A DNA stretch of 64,000 nt from Candidatus Jorgensenbacteria bacterium GW2011_GWB1_50_10 (GCA_001004105.1 LCQK01000003.1:46805-110804); one strand, 5' to 3'; counted from the stretch's first letter, positions 5,973-48,932 are shown. The notes: generated from the sequence alone by a model not told the origin. Numbers and translations are program-made.

Positions 5973-6964
5973 TGGTAAATCCCGAAGCAAAACTTAATCC
6001 GAAGATTTTCGACAAAGACGTGGAAATGAAACCGACGCGGGACGGGTATGGCGATGGTCTGGTTTTGGCTGCTGACCATAATCCTAACGTGGTCGCGCTC
6101 TGCGCCGATTTGACGGAATCAACGCGAGCGGAGGCCTTTGCGAAGAAATATCCAGATAGGTTTTTTGAATGCGGGGTGGCCGAGCAGAATATGGCAACCA
6201 TTGCCGCGGGCCTTGGCATCTCCGGGAAAATTCCCTTCATTTCTTCTTACGCGACTTTTTCGCCGGGCCGGAACTGGGAGCAGATTCGGACGACGATTGC
6301 CTACAACGACTCCAACGTGAAAATCGCCGGGCATCACGCCGGCGTCTCGGTGGGACCGGACGGCGCGACTCACCAGGCAACGGAAGACATCGCCATCATG
6401 CGCGCGATGCCCAACATGAAAGTTTTCGTGCCATGCGACGCGATTGAGGCAAAAAAACTGGTGGTCGCCTCCGCGAAAATATGGGGGCCGGTGTATATGC
6501 GTTTCGGCCGGGAGAAAAGCGCGGTTATCACGACCGCAAGAACCCCCTTTACGCCTGGCAAGGCGGAAATATTTTGGGAATCAAAAGGAAAAATCCAATG
6601 CGCGATTATCGCCTGCGGGATACTGGTCAAGAACGCACTTCTTGCGGCGAAAGAACTGGAGGAGGAAGGCATAAAAACTATTGTTATCAACAACCACAGC
6701 ATCAAGCCGATTGACGAGCAGAAAATCATTGAAGCGGCGGAAAAAGCCGGGGCAGTCGTCATAGTGGAAGAACATCAGGTCTCAGGCGGTTTGGGCGGGG
6801 CGGTAGCCGAAGTTTTGGCAAAACATGCCCCCACGCCCATTGAATTCGTGGGCATGCAGGACACTTTCGGTGAATCGGGCCCGCCCCATGAACTCATTGA
6901 GAAATACGGGATGGGAGTGAGAGACATAAAAGCGGCAGTTAGGCGTGTCATCAAGAGAAGATGA
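5972..6964 (+). CDS. transketolase, C-terminal (pyrimidine-binding) subunit
   Basis: FECGVAEQNM and GPDGATHQATEDIA motifs. The start overlaps the stop of the N-terminal subunit. Confidence 0.9.
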   Translation: MVNPEAKLNPKIFDKDVEMKPTRDGYGDGLVLAADHNPNVVALCADLTESTRAEAFAKKYPDRFFECGVAEQNMATIAAGLGISGKIPFISSYATFSPGRNWEQIRTTIAYNDSNVKIAGHHAGVSVGPDGATHQATEDIAIMRAMPNMKVFVPCDAIEAKKLVVASAKIWGPVYMRFGREKSAVITTARTPFTPGKAEIFWESKGKIQCAIIACGILVKNALLAAKELEEEGIKTIVINNHSIKPIDEQKIIEAAEKAGAVVIVEEHQVSGGLGGAVAEVLAKHAPTPIEFVGMQDTFGESGPPHELIEKYGMGVRDIKAAVRRVIKRR

Positions 6965-8205
6965 TGAAAAGAACCAATGGCTTCACTCTCATTGAACTTT
7001 TAATCGTCATCGCCATTCTTGCCGTCTTCGCAACGGTGACTGTTTTGGTCATCAACCCCGCCGAGCTCATCAGGGCCCGTCGCGACTCCACCCGGCTCTC
7101 CGACCTTAACACCATCAATAAGACCCTGGGCCTTCTCCAAACCGACCAACCTGGCGCCTCTTTCGGCTCTAGCAACAAGGTTTACGTTTCCATCCCCGAC
7201 ACCTCCGCGACCTGCGTGAACCTCGGCCTGCCCGCCCTCCCTTCCGGCTGGACTTACGGCTGTGTCACAACTGCCAACCTCTACAATGTTAACGGCACGG
7301 GCTGGATTCCTGTGAATCTCATGAGCTTTTCCGCCGGTTCGCCCCTCTCCCGCCTGCCCGTTGACCCCATCAACGCCACCTCAACCGGCAACTACTACAC
7401 CTACGTTACCGGGGGGAGTTGGGAGTTCACCGCTTTCCCGGAATCCTCCAAGTACAAAATGGGCGGCGGGAGCGACAAGACATCAGGTGACGGCGGTCCC
7501 TATCCCGAACTTTTTGAAATCGGTTCCAATTTAGCCCTTCACCCGGTGTCCAGAGACACTTCGCTTAAGGGCTATTGGAATTTTGAAGAGGGAAGCGGAG
7601 CGACGACTTATGACTCTTCGGGCGCCGGTAATGTCGGCACCTGGAACGGTTCAGGCAGTCACTGGGCTTCCGGGCGGGTAGGAACGTATGGGGGGCAATT
7701 CAACGGCACGAATGATTATTTGGATGTTGGAAATACAAGCTCCTTAAATATCACGGGCAATATCACTTTTATGGCTTGGGTTTATCTTACTTCTCTGCCC
7801 GGCACTGGCCAATATCGGGTTATCAATCGGGGCGTTGATGGGGGGTTCGGTATGTATGTAGGCGCTGGCGATCATCCTGATGACATAGAATGCGGTATCC
7901 GAACCTCAAATGGAGGCCGAGCGATATCTTCGGACGGTTACGCTTCAAATATTTTAAATATGTGGACACACTTAGCCTGCGTTTATGACGGGTCGGCCCT
8001 TCGTTTGTATGTGAACGGTTCTCAAATTGGTTCGGCGAGCGCCTCCGGAGAAAACAATGTCGGCGGTTATAATACCAGTGTCCGGATCGGATCGGATTGG
8101 CTACCCGGCAAATTTTTTCCGGGCAGAATTGACACGGTCCGCATTTACGACCGGGGTCTTTCAGCCGATGAAGTACGGGCAATCTATGAATCCGCTAACA
8201 ACTGA
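6961..8205 (+). CDS. type IV pilin-like protein with C-terminal LamG (concanavalin A-like lectin) domain
   Basis: Prepilin leader and methylation motif NGFTLIELLIVIAILAV, then a pilin-like core (GWIPVNL...SPLSRLPVDP). The C-terminal part has YWNFEEGSGATTYDSSG...FNGTNDY and a RIDTVRIYDRGLSADEV LamG signature. Confidence 0.8.
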   Translation: MMKRTNGFTLIELLIVIAILAVFATVTVLVINPAELIRARRDSTRLSDLNTINKTLGLLQTDQPGASFGSSNKVYVSIPDTSATCVNLGLPALPSGWTYGCVTTANLYNVNGTGWIPVNLMSFSAGSPLSRLPVDPINATSTGNYYTYVTGGSWEFTAFPESSKYKMGGGSDKTSGDGGPYPELFEIGSNLALHPVSRDTSLKGYWNFEEGSGATTYDSSGAGNVGTWNGSGSHWASGRVGTYGGQFNGTNDYLDVGNTSSLNITGNITFMAWVYLTSLPGTGQYRVINRGVDGGFGMYVGAGDHPDDIECGIRTSNGGRAISSDGYASNILNMWTHLACVYDGSALRLYVNGSQIGSASASGENNVGGYNTSVRIGSDWLPGKFFPGRIDTVRIYDRGLSADEVRAIYESANN

Positions 8206-11893: not shown

Positions 11894-11944
11894 GTTTTTA
11901 CTGGGTAGTCAGTTGTTTTGTTGCTCTATTCTCGCATATAAAAT

Positions 11945-11973
11945 TGACAAGCTTGTATAAATAGGGTATACTT
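11945..11973 (+). promoter_or_regulatory. sigma-70-type promoter of DGR target gene 1
   Basis: TTGACA (11945-11950), a 17-bp spacer, then TATACT (11968-11973). This is about 80 nt upstream of the ATG at 12054. Confidence 0.6.
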
Positions 11974-12053: not shown

Positions 12054-12749
12054 ATGGCGAAAAAGACGGATGAACTGGTGCAGTTTGCGGGCCACTTCCA
12101 GTCGCTCGCGACTGCGGTTTCCCGCAACCTCGAAGAGCGCGGCGTAAACGTTGTTGAGGCAATCGCGGAGGCCGCAAAGCCGCAAGGCGCTCGGGCGGTC
12201 GCGAAGATCGTAGACGCGCTCGCCGAACTCGTTGAAAACGGCAAGCGGGTCGTCGGCGCTCTCAATCTCATCGTGGCCGACATCGCCGTGAAGACCGAAC
12301 TCTTCACAAAAAATTCGTTCTTCGGCGAGGGGAGCCCAGTAAAACTCTACATCTGGGATAACTTCCGGAACTGGGTACTCACGGCTATCCTTGAGAATAT
12401 ACCTGCGTTCCAGGGTATGCTCGTGAAGCACCAACTCACGAAGGGGATGTATGACTCGGAGATTCTCTCCGGACTCGGGCATCCCACGCCGTTCTCACCA
12501 ACCGAGTTCGCGGCTGTCATTCGCGACCTCATCTCCAAGCAATCGAGAGGCGAGGAGGGCCTTCTCCTCACGAACGGCTACGCCAACATCTTCTATGTAC
12601 AGTTGCCTGCCGGCGCAGGCGGGGAAGATGCACGCGTGGTCGCGGTGCGCGTGACCTGGAACGCCGGGGACGACGACTGGCACCTGGACGCCTACGGCTT
12701 GGACGACGACGGGTGGGGTGACGGTGTCTGCGTGTTCTCTCGCAGCTGA
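12054..12749 (+). CDS. DGR target (variable) protein 1, 231 aa, unassigned family
   Basis: GC-rich ORF whose last 37 codons are the VR. It has no signal peptide or TM segment, and an SD-like AGAGAGG lies upstream of the ATG. A paralog lies at 48342..48932. Confidence 0.85.
   Translation: MAKKTDELVQFAGHFQSLATAVSRNLEERGVNVVEAIAEAAKPQGARAVAKIVDALAELVENGKRVVGALNLIVADIAVKTELFTKNSFFGEGSPVKLYIWDNFRNWVLTAILENIPAFQGMLVKHQLTKGMYDSEILSGLGHPTPFSPTEFAAVIRDLISKQSRGEEGLLLTNGYANIFYVQLPAGAGGEDARVVAVRVTWNAGDDDWHLDAYGLDDDGWGDGVCVFSRS
12602..12623. repeat. decayed copy of the 20-bp palindrome (17/20 with a 2-nt insertion) inside target 1, read as LPAGAGG
   Basis: GTTGCCTGCCGGCGCAGGCGGG lies 9 bp upstream of the VR. 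The paralog has a 6-codon shorter segment at this point (PEDGP versus LPAGAGGEDAR). Confidence 0.6.
12632..12743 (+). repeat. DGR variable repeat VR1
   Basis: 112 bp with 99/112 identity to the TR. All 13 differences lie at TR adenines. Confidence 0.9.
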
Positions 12750-12782
12750 TCTCGGATTTTCGGTCTCTTGGCAATAGTAGTG

Positions 12783-12823
12783 CGCCCCGTTCGAGTTCTT
12801 CGGAACTTGGACGGGGCGTTTTT
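12783..12823 (+). terminator. hairpin with UUCG loop plus T5 downstream of VR1 (intrinsic terminator and/or DGR target-recognition hairpin)
   Basis: 16-bp stem (12783-12798 pairs with 12803-12818, two G-U pairs), loop TTCG, then TTTTT. It starts 40 nt after the end of the VR. Confidence 0.7.
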
Positions 12824-12831
12824 GTTATAAT
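12823..12831 (+). promoter_or_regulatory. extended -10 box TGTTATAAT, candidate promoter of the TR-containing RNA
   Basis: A perfect TGnTATAAT sits directly after the terminator and about 170 nt upstream of the TR. I saw no convincing -35 box. Confidence 0.45.
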
Positions 12832-12998
12832 AAAAATGAAATTTTTTGACATCACTGCGGTCAAGGCTTCAGTGGGAAGATTTCAAAAAACAGAAAGGTC
12901 AGCTGGTGTAGGGCGCTAACGGGTGCGAAAGACCCGGCATTAGATGCAACGCTTAGAGGAATCAAAGCGCAGTGGCAAGGGCGGCGCTTTACACGATA

Positions 12999-13110
12999 AC
13001 GCGTGGTCGCGGTGAACGTGAACTGGAACGCCGAGAACGACGACTGGAACCTGAACGCCAACGGCTTGGACGACGACAGGTGGAATGACGGTAACTGCGT
13101 GTTCTCTCGC
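12999..13110 (+). repeat. DGR template repeat (TR)
   Basis: Non-coding and rich in AAC codons in the VR frame (encodes ...VNVNWNAENDDWNLNANGLDDDRWNDGNCVFSR). It is the adenine-bearing partner of VR1. Confidence 0.9.
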
Positions 13111-13125
13111 CGCTTACCTTTTATA

Positions 13126-13470
13126 TCAGTTCTTTGGGAGCTGTTTTAGCCAACCGCCCAGCATTTTTCCAACTTCGTCAACTTTTCCAGAAAGCGCGGC
13201 GTATTTTTTCGTGTCCAGAGATTTGATTTGCCAGGCAATTTGGAGGAAAAATTTTAGTGAGTCAAGTTTAAAAGAGGAATTCCTGATTTTTGCAAACCGT
13301 TCGGCTGGCGTGAGAGGGGCGGCTGAGAAAATTTCTTCGATAATATCCAAGAAAAGCAAATCTACTTTTACGCCGAGAGTATAGCGCGAGGTTTTGGGAA
13401 AATGAGGCGCGAATTCTTGCCAAAGCGTGTAGGCCGCGATTAGTTTCTGAATAATTGGCAGTTCATTCCG
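13126..13470 (-). CDS. avd: Avd-like accessory variability determinant (four-helix-bundle / 23S-IVS protein family); start codon unresolved
   Basis: The reading frame encodes NELPIIQKLIAAYTLWQEFAPHFPKTSRYTLGVKVDLLFLDIIEEIF...KYAALSGKVDEVGKMLGGWLKQ, a typical Avd pattern. There is no in-frame ATG, GTG or TTG upstream of 13359. An ATG at 13519 is out of frame by one base across a G9 tract. Confidence 0.7.
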   Translation of the reverse strand, partial: RNELPIIQKLIAAYTLWQEFAPHFPKTSRYTLGVKVDLLFLDIIEEIFSAAPLTPAERFAKIRNSSFKLDSLKFFLQIAWQIKSLDTKKYAALSGKVDEVGKMLGGWLKQLPKN

Positions 13471-13472
13471 TC

Positions 13473-13481
13473 GGGGGGGGG
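13473..13481. repeat. homopolymeric G9 (C9 on the avd strand) tract
   Basis: Nine consecutive G, 18-26 nt upstream of the RT ATG and inside the 5' region of avd. Loss of one base would fuse the ATG at 13519 to the avd frame. Confidence 0.9.
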
Positions 13482-13498
13482 TTAGAGGACGGGAATTT

Positions 13499-14482
13499 AT
13501 GAAAATTCAATTGAGCCATAAATTCGAAGATATTATTTCACTGGAAAATCTTTTGGAAGCATGGCGAGAATTTTTGCGCGGCAAGAGAAATAAAAGAGAC
13601 GTTCAGGAATTCTCATCGCGTTTAATGGATAACATTCTATTACTTCACAGCGAACTTCGCAATAAAACCTACAAGCACGGGAAGTACGAAGCCTTTAACA
13701 TCTCCGACCCCAAACCGAGAAACATCCACAAAGCCGCCGTCCGCGACCGCCTACTTCATTACGCTATTTACAGGGTTTTATATCCGTTTTTTGATAAGGT
13801 ATTCATCGCCGATTCTTTTTCCTGCCGTTTGGGAAAAGGGACGCACAGAGCCATCAACCGCTTTAGAACTTTTGCTTATAAAGTGAGTAAAAATAATACC
13901 AAAACCTGCTGGGTTTTAAAGTTGGATATTAGGAAATTCTTCGCGAGTATTGACCATGAAATTTTGATAAAAATTCTTGAGGAATACATACCCGACCAAG
14001 ACATTATCTGGTTGCTGAAGAAAGTGATAGAAAGTTTTTATTCGACCGAACCCGGCAAGGGCCTGCCTTTAGGCAATTTAACCTCCCAGCTTTTAGTAAA
14101 TGTTTACATGAACAAGTTTGACCAATTTGTGAAACACAAGTTCAAGGCCAAGTATTACGTGAGATACGCCGATGATTTTGTGATTGTGTCGAAAAACGGA
14201 ATATGGCTTGAAAGTTTAATTCCGAGAATCAGCGAATTTCTAAACAGAGAATTGAAGTTAAAACTTCACGACGATAAGATATTCATTAAAACTTTAGCTT
14301 CGGGAGTAGATTTCCTTGGCTGGGTTCACTTTCCGGATTACCGAGTTCTGCGAACCACGACCAAAAGAAGAATGTTTAAAAGAATCAAAGAACATCCCGC
14401 GCCGGAAACAATAAATTCTTATTTGGGATTATTAAGGCACGGGAACGCTTATAAATTAAAAAGAAAAATTATTGCTGAATAA
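13499..14482 (+). CDS. DGR-type reverse transcriptase
   Basis: 327 aa. The N-terminus reads [20 protein letters not shown]. Motif 4 [20 protein letters not shown] carries the SQ typical of DGR RTs, and the catalytic motif is [11 protein letters not shown]. There is no maturase or endonuclease extension, and the gene is visibly AT-rich. Confidence 0.9.
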
Positions 14483-15242: not shown

Positions 15243-15248
15243 AAAATC

Positions 15249-15268
15249 CCTGCCTGCCGGCAGGCAGG
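15249..15268. repeat. 20-bp palindrome, copy 2 (junction between prfA stop and the displaced prfA 3' remnant)
   Basis: Exact CCTGCCTGCCGGCAGGCAGG, 6 nt after the prfA stop codon. Confidence 0.95.
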
Positions 15269-15379
15269 CGCACCTATAATTTTCCGCAGGACAGGATAAC
15301 CGACCACCGTCAGGGCAAAAAGGTTTCAAATATTCTGAAAGTTCTCGACGGCGATTTGGACAAACTAACCGGCCGTTAA
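15269..15379 (+). pseudogene. displaced original 3' end of prfA (36 codons plus stop, out of frame with prfA)
   Basis: Encodes [36 protein letters not shown]. It shares the 17-mer TATAATTTTCCGCAGGA with 15123-15139 and is GC-rich like the prfA core. Confidence 0.75.
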
Positions 15380-16870
15380 AATTTCTATATCCTTTTGGAA
15401 TTGCTGGGCTTTCACGACCACCGGTTCGCCGTAAGCCCAGCGGTAGTAATACCACCGGCCACCGGCGTAGTATCTTGCCGCGGCGCAGCGTTCGGCAAGG
15501 ACTTGGGCATCGGCGATGTTTCTGTTTTCGCTCACGTAATTCCGGCAAGCGCTGGAATTCAGGGCGTCTTTGAGATACAAGGAAGTCGCAACGAAAGCGT
15601 CGGCGTTTGACCAGGGATTGGAAGGAGTTTGGCCGGTGATTTTCCCAATATAATCCTTGCTTTGGTTATACTCCCAGGAACTGCCGTTTTTCTCCCAACC
15701 GCCGTAGATGGCCCAGGTTGAGGGAATGAATTGGGCCGGGCCCATGGCGCCGCCGTAGGCGCCGTCTCTGTTGGCACAGGAAACCTTCGCCACGGTTGAA
15801 TTCGGGTCAATGCCGAGCTTGGAAAGAATGGCGAGGAAAATCGGAACGTCGCGGGTGGGGTGCATGGCGCCCTGGTAGCTGCAGCGGCCGACGTTTTTCC
15901 CCAGAAGAGATTCTTGCTGAAGAATGGCGAGAAGAAAAGCGGCCCGGACCCCGGTTGCGCCTTCGGCAAGGCGGGCGTATTTATAGGCCTCTTCAAAAGT
16001 GAGTTCGCCGCCTCCCAAAAGACGGAAAATTCTGCTTCTTATTTGAGCGGCAGTGGCTTGGGTTTCTTTCAGGATTTTTTGGTATTCGGATTCTTTGCCT
16101 TTGGTTACGGTCAGAAGCTGATTTTTTTCCGCTTGGGTCGTCGCGACGCTCTTTTTTTGCGATTCCTGATAATTCTTGAGATTTTCCACGTCGGATTTTT
16201 CCGCGGCGAGCTCCTGTTTTTGCTCAAGCAATTCCACCCGAAGGGCGACAACTTCGTTTAAGGCCGTCCGGATGTTGGACTGAACCAGGGTTATGTTGTT
16301 GACGTCACCGAAGAAATCCGAAAGATTGGCATTGGCCAGCAACACCTCGATCAAGCTTTGGGCGTCGGCTTCATAGAGGTCGCGGACGCCTCTCGCAAGG
16401 GCCGTTTTATGGCCGTCAATTCTGTTTTCGGTAACGTTTATGTTCTTTTGAGTGCTCGTTATTTCGTCGTCCAATTTCTGGAGATTCAGGTTGACCGCTT
16501 TAATTTGGAGGTTCAACTGGCTGATTTTGGCGTTCAGGGATTTTATTTCGTTAGTGAGGGTTTTGCCCTGTTTTTGATATTCGGCAACCGTACTTTGATG
16601 TTCAAGGATTTGGCGCTCCAATTCGGCAAGTTCGTTTTCAAGTTTCTCCCGTTCTTCCTGGCTGGTCGCGCCGTTTTCCGTGCCCGTCATCTCGGCTGCC
16701 TGGGTCGGAGTGTTCAGTTTGGTTCCGAGAAGAAGCCCCGAAAAAGCGAGGAGAACCAAAACTCCTCCTACGAATTTGATTGATTTGGTAAGAGGGATCC
16801 GGATAGCGGTCGAATAGGAGAGATTGAGACGTCTTTTACGGCTGGCCTTAATATCGTAGATTTTGCGCAT
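15365..16870 (-). CDS. membrane-anchored coiled-coil protein with C-terminal lytic-transglycosylase-like domain
   Basis: N-terminal TM segment and a long heptad-like region ([16 protein letters not shown]...). The C-terminal part has [12 protein letters not shown] and [13 protein letters not shown], which are SLT/MltB-like motifs. Confidence 0.7.
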
Positions 16871-18165: not shown

Positions 18166-19651
<1,486 letters not shown>

Positions 19652-20359: not shown

Positions 20360-20440
20360 TTTATTCAAGTAAACCTAGGTTGCATACCCCCTGTGGATAA
20401 GTGCACTATCCGGGAGGGGTTAATTTGATATACTAAAAGA

Positions 20441-21038
20441 ATGAAAAAAGGTTTTACTCTTATCGAGCTTCTGGTCGTTATCGCCATTTTGGCGGTTCTT
20501 GCGACCGCAGTGGTCTTGGCTATCAACCCGGCCGAGCTCGGCCGAGCTCATTCGGCAGGCGCGGGATTCCACGAGAATCTCGGATTTGGCGGCAATAAAC
20601 AGCGCCATCGCTCTCTATTTGTCGGACATTACTTCTCCCGGCTTGGGTGGTCCGAATGGTGCTTCCTGCACTAACGCTGCCCGTTGCACTTCTGGGACAA
20701 CCGAATTTTTCTCGGCGAGCATTGGGAGCTGCGGGACAAACGCCACGACCACTGTTGACGGCAACGGCTGGGTGTCGGTTGATTTAGCGGACATCTCGAG
20801 CGGTTCGCCGCTCTCCCGTCTGCCCCTTGACCCCAATAATGGCCAAGGAAGCGGCGATTGCGCCGCCGATGGCACGACTATTTGCTTCTACGCCTTCGGC
20901 TGTAATGGCACGAACTACGAAATTAACGCGGTAATGGAGAGCACGAAATTCGCCGATGACGGCGGTGCCGCCGTTGAAGATACGGACGGCGGGGACCAAC
21001 TGGATATCTACGAAGTAGGGAACAATCTAGCCCTATAG
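20441..21038 (+). pseudogene. type IV pilin gene A, frameshifted by a 10-bp tandem duplication
   Basis: MKKGFTLIELLVVIAILAVLATAVVLAINPAEL runs in frame 1. GGCCGAGCTC is then duplicated (20530-20539 and 20540-20549), and the pilin continues in another frame (IRQARDSTRISDLAAINS...EVGNNLAL*). Removing one unit restores a pilin of about 195 aa. Confidence 0.8.
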
Positions 21039-21043
21039 CTTCA

Positions 21044-21596
21044 ATGAAAAAAGGTTTTACTCTTATCGAGCTTCTGGTCGTTATCGCCATTTTGGCGGTT
21101 CTTGCGACCGCAGTGGTCTTGGCTATCAACCCGGCGCGTTTCTGACATTGCCGCGGTTAATAGTGCGGTTATTCTTTATCTTGCTGATGTTAGAACTCCT
21201 GGCTTAGGCGGTCCTAATGATGCGGCCTGTTCTTCGGCAACGGAACGTTGCACTGCCTCAAGCACAACAGCCAGGAAAACCGGCGGCGGTTCTTGCACCA
21301 CGCATAATACATCAACTATCGTTGACGGCAACGGTTGGGTGTCGGTTGATTTTTTGAATATTTCTTCGGATTCACCGCTATCTCGACTGCCATTCGACCC
21401 GAATAATGGGTCAACTATCTGCGGAACAGGCGTTAATGCTTGCTACTACTCATTTATTTGCAACGGCACAAGTTTTGAGATAAATGGCGCGATGGAGAGT
21501 ACTAAATTTTCTAATACTGGCGGCTCTGACGTGGAGTCCGATGATGGCGGCAATCAGGCAGACCTCTACGAGGTAGGCAACAAGCTGGATATTTAA
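21044..21596 (+). pseudogene. type IV pilin gene B, frameshifted by a deletion of about 32 nt
   Basis: The first 92 nt are identical to gene A. After INPA, the region coding ELIRQARDST is missing (1 nt in place of 33), which gives a stop at 21140-21142. The rest of the pilin (RVSDIAAVNS...EVGNKLDI*) continues in another frame. Confidence 0.75.
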
Positions 21597-25342: not shown

Positions 25343-26430
25343 TGAGGGGCTTTACTCTTATAGAAGTTTTAATAACGGTCGCAATTATTACAGCCGTTTC
25401 CGCGGCCGGTTATGTCGCGTTTTCCAAGTTCAAAGGTTCGCAAGCCGTTGAGCTCACAATGAACGAAATTACGGCCGTCATAAAGGACGTCCAAAAAAGA
25501 GCAGTGACACAGCAGGACGGCAAGCAATGGGGGCTCCGTTTCACTAATTCAACGTCAACCACGCACAGCTATCAGGTTTGGAGCGGTCCGAGCTATGCTT
25601 CGGGAACGATTAGCAGGACCTATTACCTCGGTCGCGGCACGCTCTTCGGCAACCCCGCCGACGATCTGAATGTAGACGAAATTTTCTCGGCGATAAGCGG
25701 GAAGCTCTTGGAGACAAGAGTCATTTCTTTAATAAATCGAAGAAAAGATGGTGTTGTCGGCGACATAATTCTTACTTCCCGGGGCGCGATTACAACGAGA
25801 AAAGAGAGCGGTCTTGTCGGCTATTGGCATTTTGACGAGAGTACAGCAACAACGACTTATGACGCTTCGGGGTTTGCCAATGCCGGCACGCTCACCAACG
25901 GTCCGGCATGGCAATCGGCGTCTAATTGCAAGGCGGGGACATGTTTGAGTTTTGACGGGACGAATGATTATGTGAATGTGATTGATTCAGCCTCACTCGA
26001 TATCACTGGCGCAATCACTGTTAGCGCTTGGGTATACGCGGATAGTTACCCCTCTACTTATCCAACGGTAGTGGCAAAAGGAAACTCCGCAAGCGCTTGG
26101 GAGCTTGACGTGAAGAATGATGGAACGATCGAATGGGAAGGGTTTATCGGTGGTACTCAAAGGATTTGCAATGGTGGCTCATTTAACCTTAACCAGTGGG
26201 TTTATATTGTAGGCCTATTTGATGGTAGCGACATGAAAATATTCGTTAATGGTTCAGAGGTGAAGTCATGTTCTTTCCCAGGGGTGTTAGGTACAAATAA
26301 TTCTGCCTTGGAAATCGGTTCCAGAACCAATGGAGGCGCCGTTTGGGACGGTTTTATTGATGGAGTCCGTATCTACAACAGCGCCTTGAGCGCCCAGGAA
26401 ATTTTGAATTTATATAATGATTTAAAATAA
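25342..26430 (+). CDS. prepilin-type pseudopilin with LamG domain
   Basis: MRGFTLIEVLITVAII leader and methylation motif, then GLVGYWHFDESTATTTYDASG...FDGTNDY and GVRIYNSALSAQEI. Confidence 0.8.
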   Translation: MRGFTLIEVLITVAIITAVSAAGYVAFSKFKGSQAVELTMNEITAVIKDVQKRAVTQQDGKQWGLRFTNSTSTTHSYQVWSGPSYASGTISRTYYLGRGTLFGNPADDLNVDEIFSAISGKLLETRVISLINRRKDGVVGDIILTSRGAITTRKESGLVGYWHFDESTATTTYDASGFANAGTLTNGPAWQSASNCKAGTCLSFDGTNDYVNVIDSASLDITGAITVSAWVYADSYPSTYPTVVAKGNSASAWELDVKNDGTIEWEGFIGGTQRICNGGSFNLNQWVYIVGLFDGSDMKIFVNGSEVKSCSFPGVLGTNNSALEIGSRTNGGAVWDGFIDGVRIYNSALSAQEILNLYNDLK

Positions 26431-48228: not shown

Positions 48229-48341
48229 GAAGTTGACAAGATTAGATTTTTGTGCTAAAGCTTAAACTAGCACGAACTGGCAACCTAAAGCCCCAACGAA
48301 TGTTGAGGGTGAGAGGAAACCATAACAAGGAGAGGCAAAGA

Positions 48342-48932
48342 ATGATGAAGGGAACGAACGGACTCGAGTGGCTTGCGGACCGCTGGCAGTCGGTTGCGAC
48401 TGCAGTTCCCCGCCGCTTTGAGAATCGTGGAGTTAGCGGCGGGGAGGTAATTGCCGCCGTAACCAAGCCCCAGACCAGGAGTATTGTGGTCCAGACCGAG
48501 CCCTTTGCTAAGGACTCGTTCTTTGGGGAGAGCGGTCCCGCGGAGCTCTGCATTTGGGACAACTTCCGAACCCAGGTGCTATCAGCAGTTTCCGAGACCG
48601 TGCCCGCGTTTCGAGGCACGCTCACGAGAACTGAGCTTGAGGAGCACATGGGGGACTCCGAGATTTTCGCCAACGGGACATCCCGGCCGCTCCTCTCGCC
48701 GGACGATTTTGTTGCGGTCGTCCGTGACCTCATCTCCCGCCAGCCGAGAGGTGAGAGGGGAATCCTTCTCACAAACGGGGATGCCAACATCTTCCATGTG
48801 CAGCCGGAGGATGGACCTGTGGTTGCGGTGCGTGGGCGCTGGCGCGTTGGTCTCGGCGGTTGGAGCCTGCGCGCGTATGGCCGGGACGACGTCAGATGGC
48901 TCAAAGGCCACTGCGTGTTCTCCCGCGGCTGA
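48342..48932 (+). CDS. DGR target-family paralog 2 (196 aa) with diverged VR-like C-terminus
   Basis: The start at ATG 48342 follows AAGGAGAGG, and [22 protein letters not shown] aligns with the MAKKTDELVQFAGHFQSLATAV start of target 1. Shared blocks include IWDNFR, PAF.G, VIRDLIS.Q.RGE.G.LLTNG.ANIF.VQ and the C-terminal CVFSR. Confidence 0.8.
48819..48926 (+). repeat. VR-like repeat (VR2), diverged from the TR at both adenine and non-adenine positions
   Basis: Aligns codon-for-codon with TR 13003-13110. By hand count there are about 19 mismatches at TR adenines and about 17 elsewhere. The conserved ends are GTGGT.GCGGTG and CTGCGTGTTCTC.CGC. Confidence 0.6.

Follow-up and report, generated by a model that had tools for sequence, protein, structure and literature searches.

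The locus considered here raises two questions: whether a pair of repeats in a Candidatus Jorgensenbacteria genome is the work of a diversity-generating retroelement (DGR), and, if it is, whether and by what means the mutagenesis of that element is held in check. DGRs of CPR/Patescibacteria were reportedly first surveyed by Paul et al. in 2017, who are said to have mined these same groundwater genomes, and a TR/VR pair alone is one more example of a well-catalogued class. The question of how DGR mutagenesis is restrained is open; in the words of a 2024 preprint, DGR regulatory mechanisms "await discovery". A homopolymeric tract in the avd gene of this element offers a concrete hypothesis that is testable on sequence data. 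The window, by which we mean the whole 64,000-nucleotide stretch of DNA that was analysed, is numbered from its first letter. The repeat pair and its edges are as follows.

12632-12743, plus strand: VR, the last 37 codons of the target gene; 99/112 positions equal to TR, 13/13 mismatches at TR adenines
12999-13110, plus strand: TR, non-coding, with 27 adenines and nine AAC/AAT codons in the VR frame
12728-12771, plus strand: IMH-like boundary, 16 GC-rich nt equal to TR (CTGCGTGTTCTCTCGC) and then divergence from TR, by direct alignment
13111-13147, plus strand: IMH*-like divergent segment, then a short T-run hairpin (~13127-13143) that overlaps the avd stop codon, by direct reading and MFE fold

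An ungapped scripted alignment of the two copies gives 99 identities over 112 positions, and all 13 mismatches fall on TR adenines (A>G in eight cases, A>C in three, A>T in two). Changed positions make up 13 of the 27 adenines of the TR and none of its 85 other bases; the probability of 13/13 mismatches landing on A by chance is 5.9e-10 (hypergeometric). The repeat length, the identity and the adenine-only spectrum are exactly those described in the initial annotation, which had named mismatches at non-A positions as one outcome that would speak against it; on realignment there is none at the 85 such positions. Read in the frame of the CDS at 12054-12749, VR and TR differ in ten codons, and eight of the nine AAC/AAT codons of the TR are recoded. 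The ten codons, the eight AAC/AAT among them and both peptides are as previously given, and the 255-nt spacing from VR to TR and the position of the VR as the last 37 codons of the CDS were likewise reproduced. Identity sets in abruptly at 12632, and the last shared stretch reads ...TTCTCTCGC, past which the flanks are partly alike (AGCTGATCTC versus CGCTTACCTT). The proposed IMH/IMH*-type boundary is recovered as the 16-nt identical GC-rich block followed by divergence, with a GC-rich hairpin after the VR. A repeat-finding scan recovers the pair independently of the scripted alignment.

Downstream of the TR lie two genes that meet head-to-head.

13126-13519, minus strand: avd (accessory variability determinant), convergent with TR and head-to-head with the reverse transcriptase gene; ATG at 13519-13517
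13499-14482, plus strand: DGR reverse transcriptase (RT), 327 aa, RVT_1 E 1e-26; its first seven codons overlap the first seven of avd on the other strand

The RT gene is reached 389 nt past the TR. Its ORF is intact, and the best solved match of its product is the Bordetella phage bRT (8ub7, E 1e-40, residues 9-308). The protein carries LGNLTSQ, YADD and the conserved R74, and has L at the position of I181; we take R74 and I181 of bRT to be residues with a role in adenine mutagenesis. NCBIfam has no DGR-specific RT model, and its group II intron model stayed below cutoff on the RT. Homology of the accessory gene product to Avd is seen with both Pfam bAvd (54.7 bits, cutoff 40) and NCBIfam DivGenRetAVD (62.6 bits over the full length, below the cutoff of 80). 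The order of the cassette is thus target (with VR), TR, avd on the opposite strand, and RT. The genes around it are housekeeping genes (an aldolase, a release factor, ribosomal protein L25 and 16S rRNA), which indicates that the DGR is chromosomal and not phage-borne. The identification of the repeats as the TR and VR of a DGR, first made from the mismatches, is backed by the mismatch spectrum, the DGR-type RT, the Avd homologue, the IMH/IMH* boundary and the hairpin, and we are highly confident that this is a Patescibacteria-type DGR, complete and encoded in the chromosome.

The gene that carries the VR, a promoter-like site ahead of it and a paralogue elsewhere in the window were located as follows.

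12054-12749, plus strand: DGR target gene, an ORF of 231 aa, with an N-terminal helical region and a C-terminal domain of ~160 aa that includes the VR
11944-11972, plus strand: promoter-like site ahead of the target gene (TTGACA, 17 nt, TATACT), 11/12 matches in a consensus scan; putative function
48252-48932, plus strand: target paralogue between uvrB and uvrA, with a degenerate VR-like end at 48815-48926

About 40 homologues of the target were found, and the few that have a source name are from Patescibacteria. Pfam and NCBIfam have no match for the target or its paralogue, and Pfam has none for any of 32 family members; a PDB sequence search with the target returned noise only, and a Foldseek search of the target against the PDB gave nothing significant. 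The family alignment shows a conserved core (QxxGExGxLLTNGYANIFYV) and a C-terminus that is variable on an invariant scaffold of W, W, V and S and ends in VFSR. The AlphaFold models of the target are confident, with a pLDDT of 87.7 for the whole protein and 95.4 for the isolated domain; likeness to C-type lectins is weak, as is likeness to the Mtd and TvpA folds. The C-terminal part may be a divergent C-type-lectin-like domain. The initial annotation had expected the target family to be new; the family has no Pfam match, and domainless CPR targets as such have already been reported (Roux et al. 2021, PMC8144416).

The VR-like end of the paralogue differs from the TR at 38 of 112 positions, 19 of them among the 27 adenines and 19 among the 85 other bases (Fisher P 1e-5), and the C-terminus of the paralogue is invariant in 5/5 cluster members. 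The 19 non-A mismatches and the invariant C-terminus rule out a second live VR at 48252-48932. The paralogue appears to be a past target, one that homing from the TR of the window no longer reaches.

Relatives of the RT number 284 among contigs of a one-genome-per-species collection and at least 539 among metagenome contigs. Identity is 64-76% for the best 80 from either collection, and the genome records among the relatives that name a phylum are nearly all Patescibacteria. Wherever the flank is long enough, avd is found directly upstream of RT and on the other strand in essentially all loci, and the arrangement of the window's cassette is kept in nearly all of ~150 related loci. Of 146 related loci, 120 have a repeat of the avd-adjacent region upstream of it in the same orientation, and the VR is upstream and on the same strand in all of these (120/120). 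Mismatches between the repeats of related loci number 2,048 at TR adenines and 234 elsewhere. The target family of the window is itself diversified by at least 14 distinct sister loci, counted after removal of duplicate contigs. Four pairs of otherwise identical contigs from different samples differ almost exclusively in their VRs, and 21/21, 3/3, 10/10 and 24/27 of these differences are at TR adenines; the clade is therefore active in nature. One sister locus, L022, has its avd out of frame, yet its VR differs between samples, so the assembled frame is no simple predictor of activity. The L147/L154 differences at 1063-1185 were considered as TR variation and set aside, a TR/VR assembly collapse at a contig end being more likely.

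Two further structures flank the TR on its 5' side.

12906-12994, plus strand: structured RNA directly 5' of TR; long-range helix P1 (12907-12917 with 12983-12993) enclosing two hairpins, one of them with the loop AGAGGAAUC
12782-12829, plus strand: GC-rich hairpin (17-bp stem) and a subsequent T run, 33 nt past the target stop codon, from a terminator scan

The 5' element is conserved as a structure. In an alignment of 75 loci, compensatory changes are seen in 18 of 22 pairs, and 93.3% of cells are paired; shuffles give 76.4% (0/500 as high as observed), and sliding the partners gives 32-50%. A loop motif, AGAGnAUUC, stands 40-46 nt before the TR in ~75 of 120 loci, irrespective of their targets. 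Rfam, scanned with 12700-13560 at E up to 1, yielded no family for the 5' element and only two chance miRNA matches, on the hairpin. The hairpin at 12782-12829 has a DNA fold z-score of -4.4, and 0/200 shuffles fold as well; it is probably both the terminator of the target gene and the inverted repeat downstream of the IMH. The hairpin that follows the TR (~13127-13143) is a putative terminator, and it is present together with GTTTT in most of 15 sister loci aligned. From this T-run hairpin and a TATAAT at 12826-12831, seen by direct reading, we infer a discrete TR RNA of ~300 nt, whose ends and promoter, like the role of the 5' element, are predicted ones. By analogy, one may speculate that the 5' structured part plays the role that the spacer 3' of the TR has in BPP-1. 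The covarying RNA element provides a defined handle for finding TRs and for reconstituting CPR DGRs.

An unexpected part of the cassette is the 5' end of avd, for which two further features are needed.

13461-13129, minus strand: Avd-homologous body, with stop codon at 13128-13126; frame broken at the C9 tract
13473-13481: homopolymeric G9 tract (C9 on the avd strand), inside the avd 5' end and 17 nt upstream of the RT start codon

The start of avd, M-x-Q-L-N-F-H, is the reverse complement of RT codons 1-7, a head-to-head overlap of 21 nt. By locus comparison this ATG inside the 5' end of the RT gene is conserved in related loci, and the C tract separates it from the Avd body. In the window the ATG frame, read through C9, soon reaches a stop; the body and its only conserved start are in different frames, and, as assembled, the frame of the body is without ATG, GTG or TTG before codon 35. 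As computed for the window, the frame would be intact with C8 or C11 in place of C9, and Avd would have 130 or 131 aa. The Leu codon of "LPII" was considered as an alternative start and rejected: it varies across loci (TTG, CTG, TTA, CTA and others), as expected of a sense codon.

The G9 tract is the only run of G or C of at least 7 in the 64-kb window. Of 123 related locus clusters, 110 (~90%) have at least G8 at the corresponding site; most of these tracts are G8-G11, and G14 and G18 occur once each. The linker that joins avd codon 7 to the tract is stop-free in the ATG frame in 41/41 loci, compared with stops in 10 and 32 for the other two frames. Where the tract is at least 8 long, the ATG is in frame with Avd in 15 of 69 clusters and shifted by +1 in 34 and by +2 in 20; where it is short or absent, the ATG is in frame in 6/7. 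Five groups of otherwise identical contigs from different assemblies differ by one base in the tract. In four of the five, tract length is the sole difference over 3.4-4.2 kb, and two groups toggle between in-frame and out-of-frame by tract length. By comparison, none of 84 A/T runs of at least 7 differs in the same contig comparisons. The tract at the window's locus is G9 in all three assemblies, and an exact-flank pattern search for the tract of the window's strain in JGI metagenome contigs gave no match. Gene calling makes avd 73 aa in L005 and leaves it uncalled in the three assemblies of the window's locus; the tract would explain such truncated or missed avd calls in these genomes.

Judged from assembled sequence, this pattern is the signature of a slippage-prone contingency tract, with the qualification that one-base differences between assemblies could in part be homopolymer sequencing error. 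A further reading, which we put forward tentatively and as a little less likely than not, is that hypermutation in the clade would be under stochastic, heritable on/off control via the G8-G11 avd tract, most cells and assembled genomes being OFF and slippage variants alone making Avd, and that the 5' RNA would be the counterpart of the BPP-1 spacer that recruits RT-Avd.

The tract might instead be a cis element for the RT strand, for example within the RT 5' UTR, at its ribosome-binding region or in the DGR RNA, with Avd made constitutively through programmed +1/-1 frameshifting or transcriptional slippage and not through heritable phase variation. We consider this unlikely, though several observations favour it. 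The distance from the tract to the RT ATG is constrained, mostly to 10-25 nt, and a recurrent [C]TTA[A/G]A[A/G]G motif follows the tract. The frames are also non-uniform, and the excess of +1 (34 of 69 clusters) hints that Avd may be rescued by transcriptional slippage or ribosomal frameshifting on the proline-coding C run. C runs decoded by tRNA-Pro and long homopolymers are known slippage sites. However, all three frames occur, so that no single programmed shift fits every locus, tract length differs at the DNA level between otherwise identical contigs, and loci that lack the tract are in frame. A cis role or frameshifting and gating by phase variation are compatible with each other.

The control by phase variation that we propose has to be set against the state of the window's own copy, which the initial annotation had called active-looking. 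The part of that description that stands concerns the past: zero non-A mismatches in 112 nt, together with an intact RT, would argue for recent activity and favour recent homing. For the present, the identical VR in the public assemblies found and the out-of-frame avd would speak against current activity. The whole locus, VR included, is identical in three independent assemblies, with 10-14 contigs identical at the consensus level. The target protein shows no difference among 10 contigs and three GenBank protein accessions (100% identity to a hypothetical protein of Candidatus Jorgensenbacteria, GW2011 groundwater series), and its 90%-identity cluster is a single sequence. With avd out of frame as assembled, the window's element could be a recently inactivated copy.

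Carried further, this would make the element a decayed DGR, a cassette that was active until recently but has a frozen VR and an avd reduced by frameshift to a pseudogene, the G tract being the mere site of the lesion. The frame of avd relative to its sole conserved ATG and the identity of locus and target across assemblies and contigs would all be expected of such an element, and over half of the candidate DGRs in one survey were discarded as defective (Wu et al. 2018, PMC5758913). We nevertheless hold it to be improbable. It leaves aside the lack of any non-A mismatch in 112 nt and the intact RT ORF, and the same tract is found in the same place in ~90% of more than 100 related loci, a recurrence that makes a chance lesion impossible. 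Moreover, 54 of 69 sister clusters are out of frame too, yet sister VRs, that of L022 included, differ at adenines. Ordinary duplication of a gene end, diverged by chance or selection and no product of a retroelement, has next to no chance of being right and is already refuted by mismatch spectrum and genomic context, as it has the mere existence of a repeat for it and, against it, a probability of 6e-10 for 13/13 mismatches on one base class, the adjoining DGR RT and Avd, and the same pattern in 120 related loci.

The adenine-only mismatches, the components of the cassette and the adenine-restricted VR differences between sister contigs are observed; the mechanism that would connect them is drawn from the homologous system of Bordetella phage BPP-1. 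A non-coding RNA consisting of the conserved 5' structured element, the TR and the 3' hairpin would be transcribed, and RT and Avd would copy its TR into cDNA, misincorporating opposite template adenines. The IMH boundary and the GC-rich hairpin downstream of it would then guide this cDNA to the VR, which it would replace, and up to ~10 codons, mostly AAC/AAT, would be recoded at the C-terminus of a small protein that may resemble C-type lectins. Under the phase-variation reading, synthesis of Avd would be gated by the hypermutable poly-G/C tract in the avd 5' end. The G9 of the window would put avd out of frame and leave the element quiescent, and Avd would be restored by slippage to G8/G11 or by a frameshift during transcription or translation.

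In kind and layout the window's element is a known one for CPR, given its B3 layout and its place in the Patescibacteria RT clade. [quoted passage not shown] 2018, PMC5758913). In the window the TR lies upstream of a reverse-strand avd, which is followed by RT, and the target lies upstream on the TR strand. DGR clade 2 is restricted to Patescibacteria and has targets without recognisable transmembrane or conserved domains (Roux et al. 2021, PMC8144416). With these B3/clade 2 DGRs the window shares gene order, orientation and chromosomal setting, and its target is also small and without a recognisable domain or transmembrane segment. Its RT falls in a large clade restricted to Patescibacteria, and the layout shows no difference from theirs. 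The literature searched, to which Paul et al. 2017 does not belong, holds no mention of the 21-nt avd/RT overlap, of the homopolymeric avd tract or of the RNA 5' of the TR, and no paper in the literature searched joins DGRs with a homopolymer or poly-G. Both the avd tract and the RNA beside the TR are clade-wide properties, and specialists may already know of them.

The likeness to the BPP-1 DGR (mtd-avd-TR-brt) extends to adenine-specific transfer from TR to VR, a VR at the 3' end of the target, the IMH/IMH* boundary, a GC-rich hairpin after the IMH, and the pairing of Avd with RT, bRT being the closest solved RT. Unlike in BPP-1, avd here is on the opposite strand between TR and RT, and the conserved RNA structure is 5' of the TR, where BPP-1 has its spacer 3' of the TR. 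The element is also cellular and not phage-borne, with a target that is weakly like the Mtd and TvpA folds.

A second likeness is to the poly-G/C contingency loci of Neisseria, Haemophilus, Campylobacter and Helicobacter. As in these, an ORF has a G/C homopolymer of 8-11 nt within its 5' end, the avd relatives include all three frames, and otherwise identical sequences differ by one base. In contrast to those loci, the candidate contingency tract described here is found in Patescibacteria, and the gene that it would gate encodes the accessory protein of a retroelement and is not a surface or restriction-modification gene.

An RNA structure with strong covariation (alignment A3) is conserved in this clade of diversity-generating retroelements (DGRs) directly 5' of the template repeat (TR), at window positions 12906-12994. 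It is present whatever the target family, and Rfam holds no family for it. Downstream of the TR, within window 13473-13519, lies the junction of the accessory gene avd and the reverse transcriptase (RT) gene. Here, and at the avd/RT junction of loci L005-L168, the two genes overlap head-to-head by 21 nt. An internal G8-G11 tract puts avd out of frame in 54 of the 69 related locus clusters, and the length of this tract differs among contigs that are identical elsewhere.

The window also holds a paralogue of the target gene, away from the cassette:

48252-48932, DGR target paralogue, between uvrB and uvrA

Of the 27 adenines of the TR, 19 are mismatched in the VR-like end of this paralogue, as are 19 of the 85 non-A positions; public sequences show no variation in this end. 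The paralogue is probably a former DGR target. Two homologues, P0010 and P0012, also lie distant from any RT (loci L001 and L003).

Among the other genes of the window, several are pilin-like: they begin with the N-terminus of a type IV pilin and contain LamG-like regions (6961-8205, 20440-21409 and 25819-26036). One 93-nt segment encoding the N-terminus occurs twice at 100% identity (20440-20532 and 21043-21135). A full-length bacterial 16S rRNA gene (18166-19651; 1421 bits) lies ~3.7 kb downstream of the DGR. The release factor as called is short (247 aa), and a second, diverged copy of the final ~35 codons of its gene lies within 15243-15380, just past the gene's stop (15242) and one copy of the palindromic 12-mer CCTGCCGGCAGG. 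It looks as if the end of this gene was duplicated or an insertion displaced it.

The palindrome itself occurs seven times in the window, against 0.12 expected (one mismatch allowed):

11157, 15253, 17040, 17917, 51726, 51949 and 63525, copies of CCTGCCGGCAGG

Some copies are internal to ORFs, where they translate as ...LPAGRQ... The palindrome looks like a dispersed element of REP-like type.
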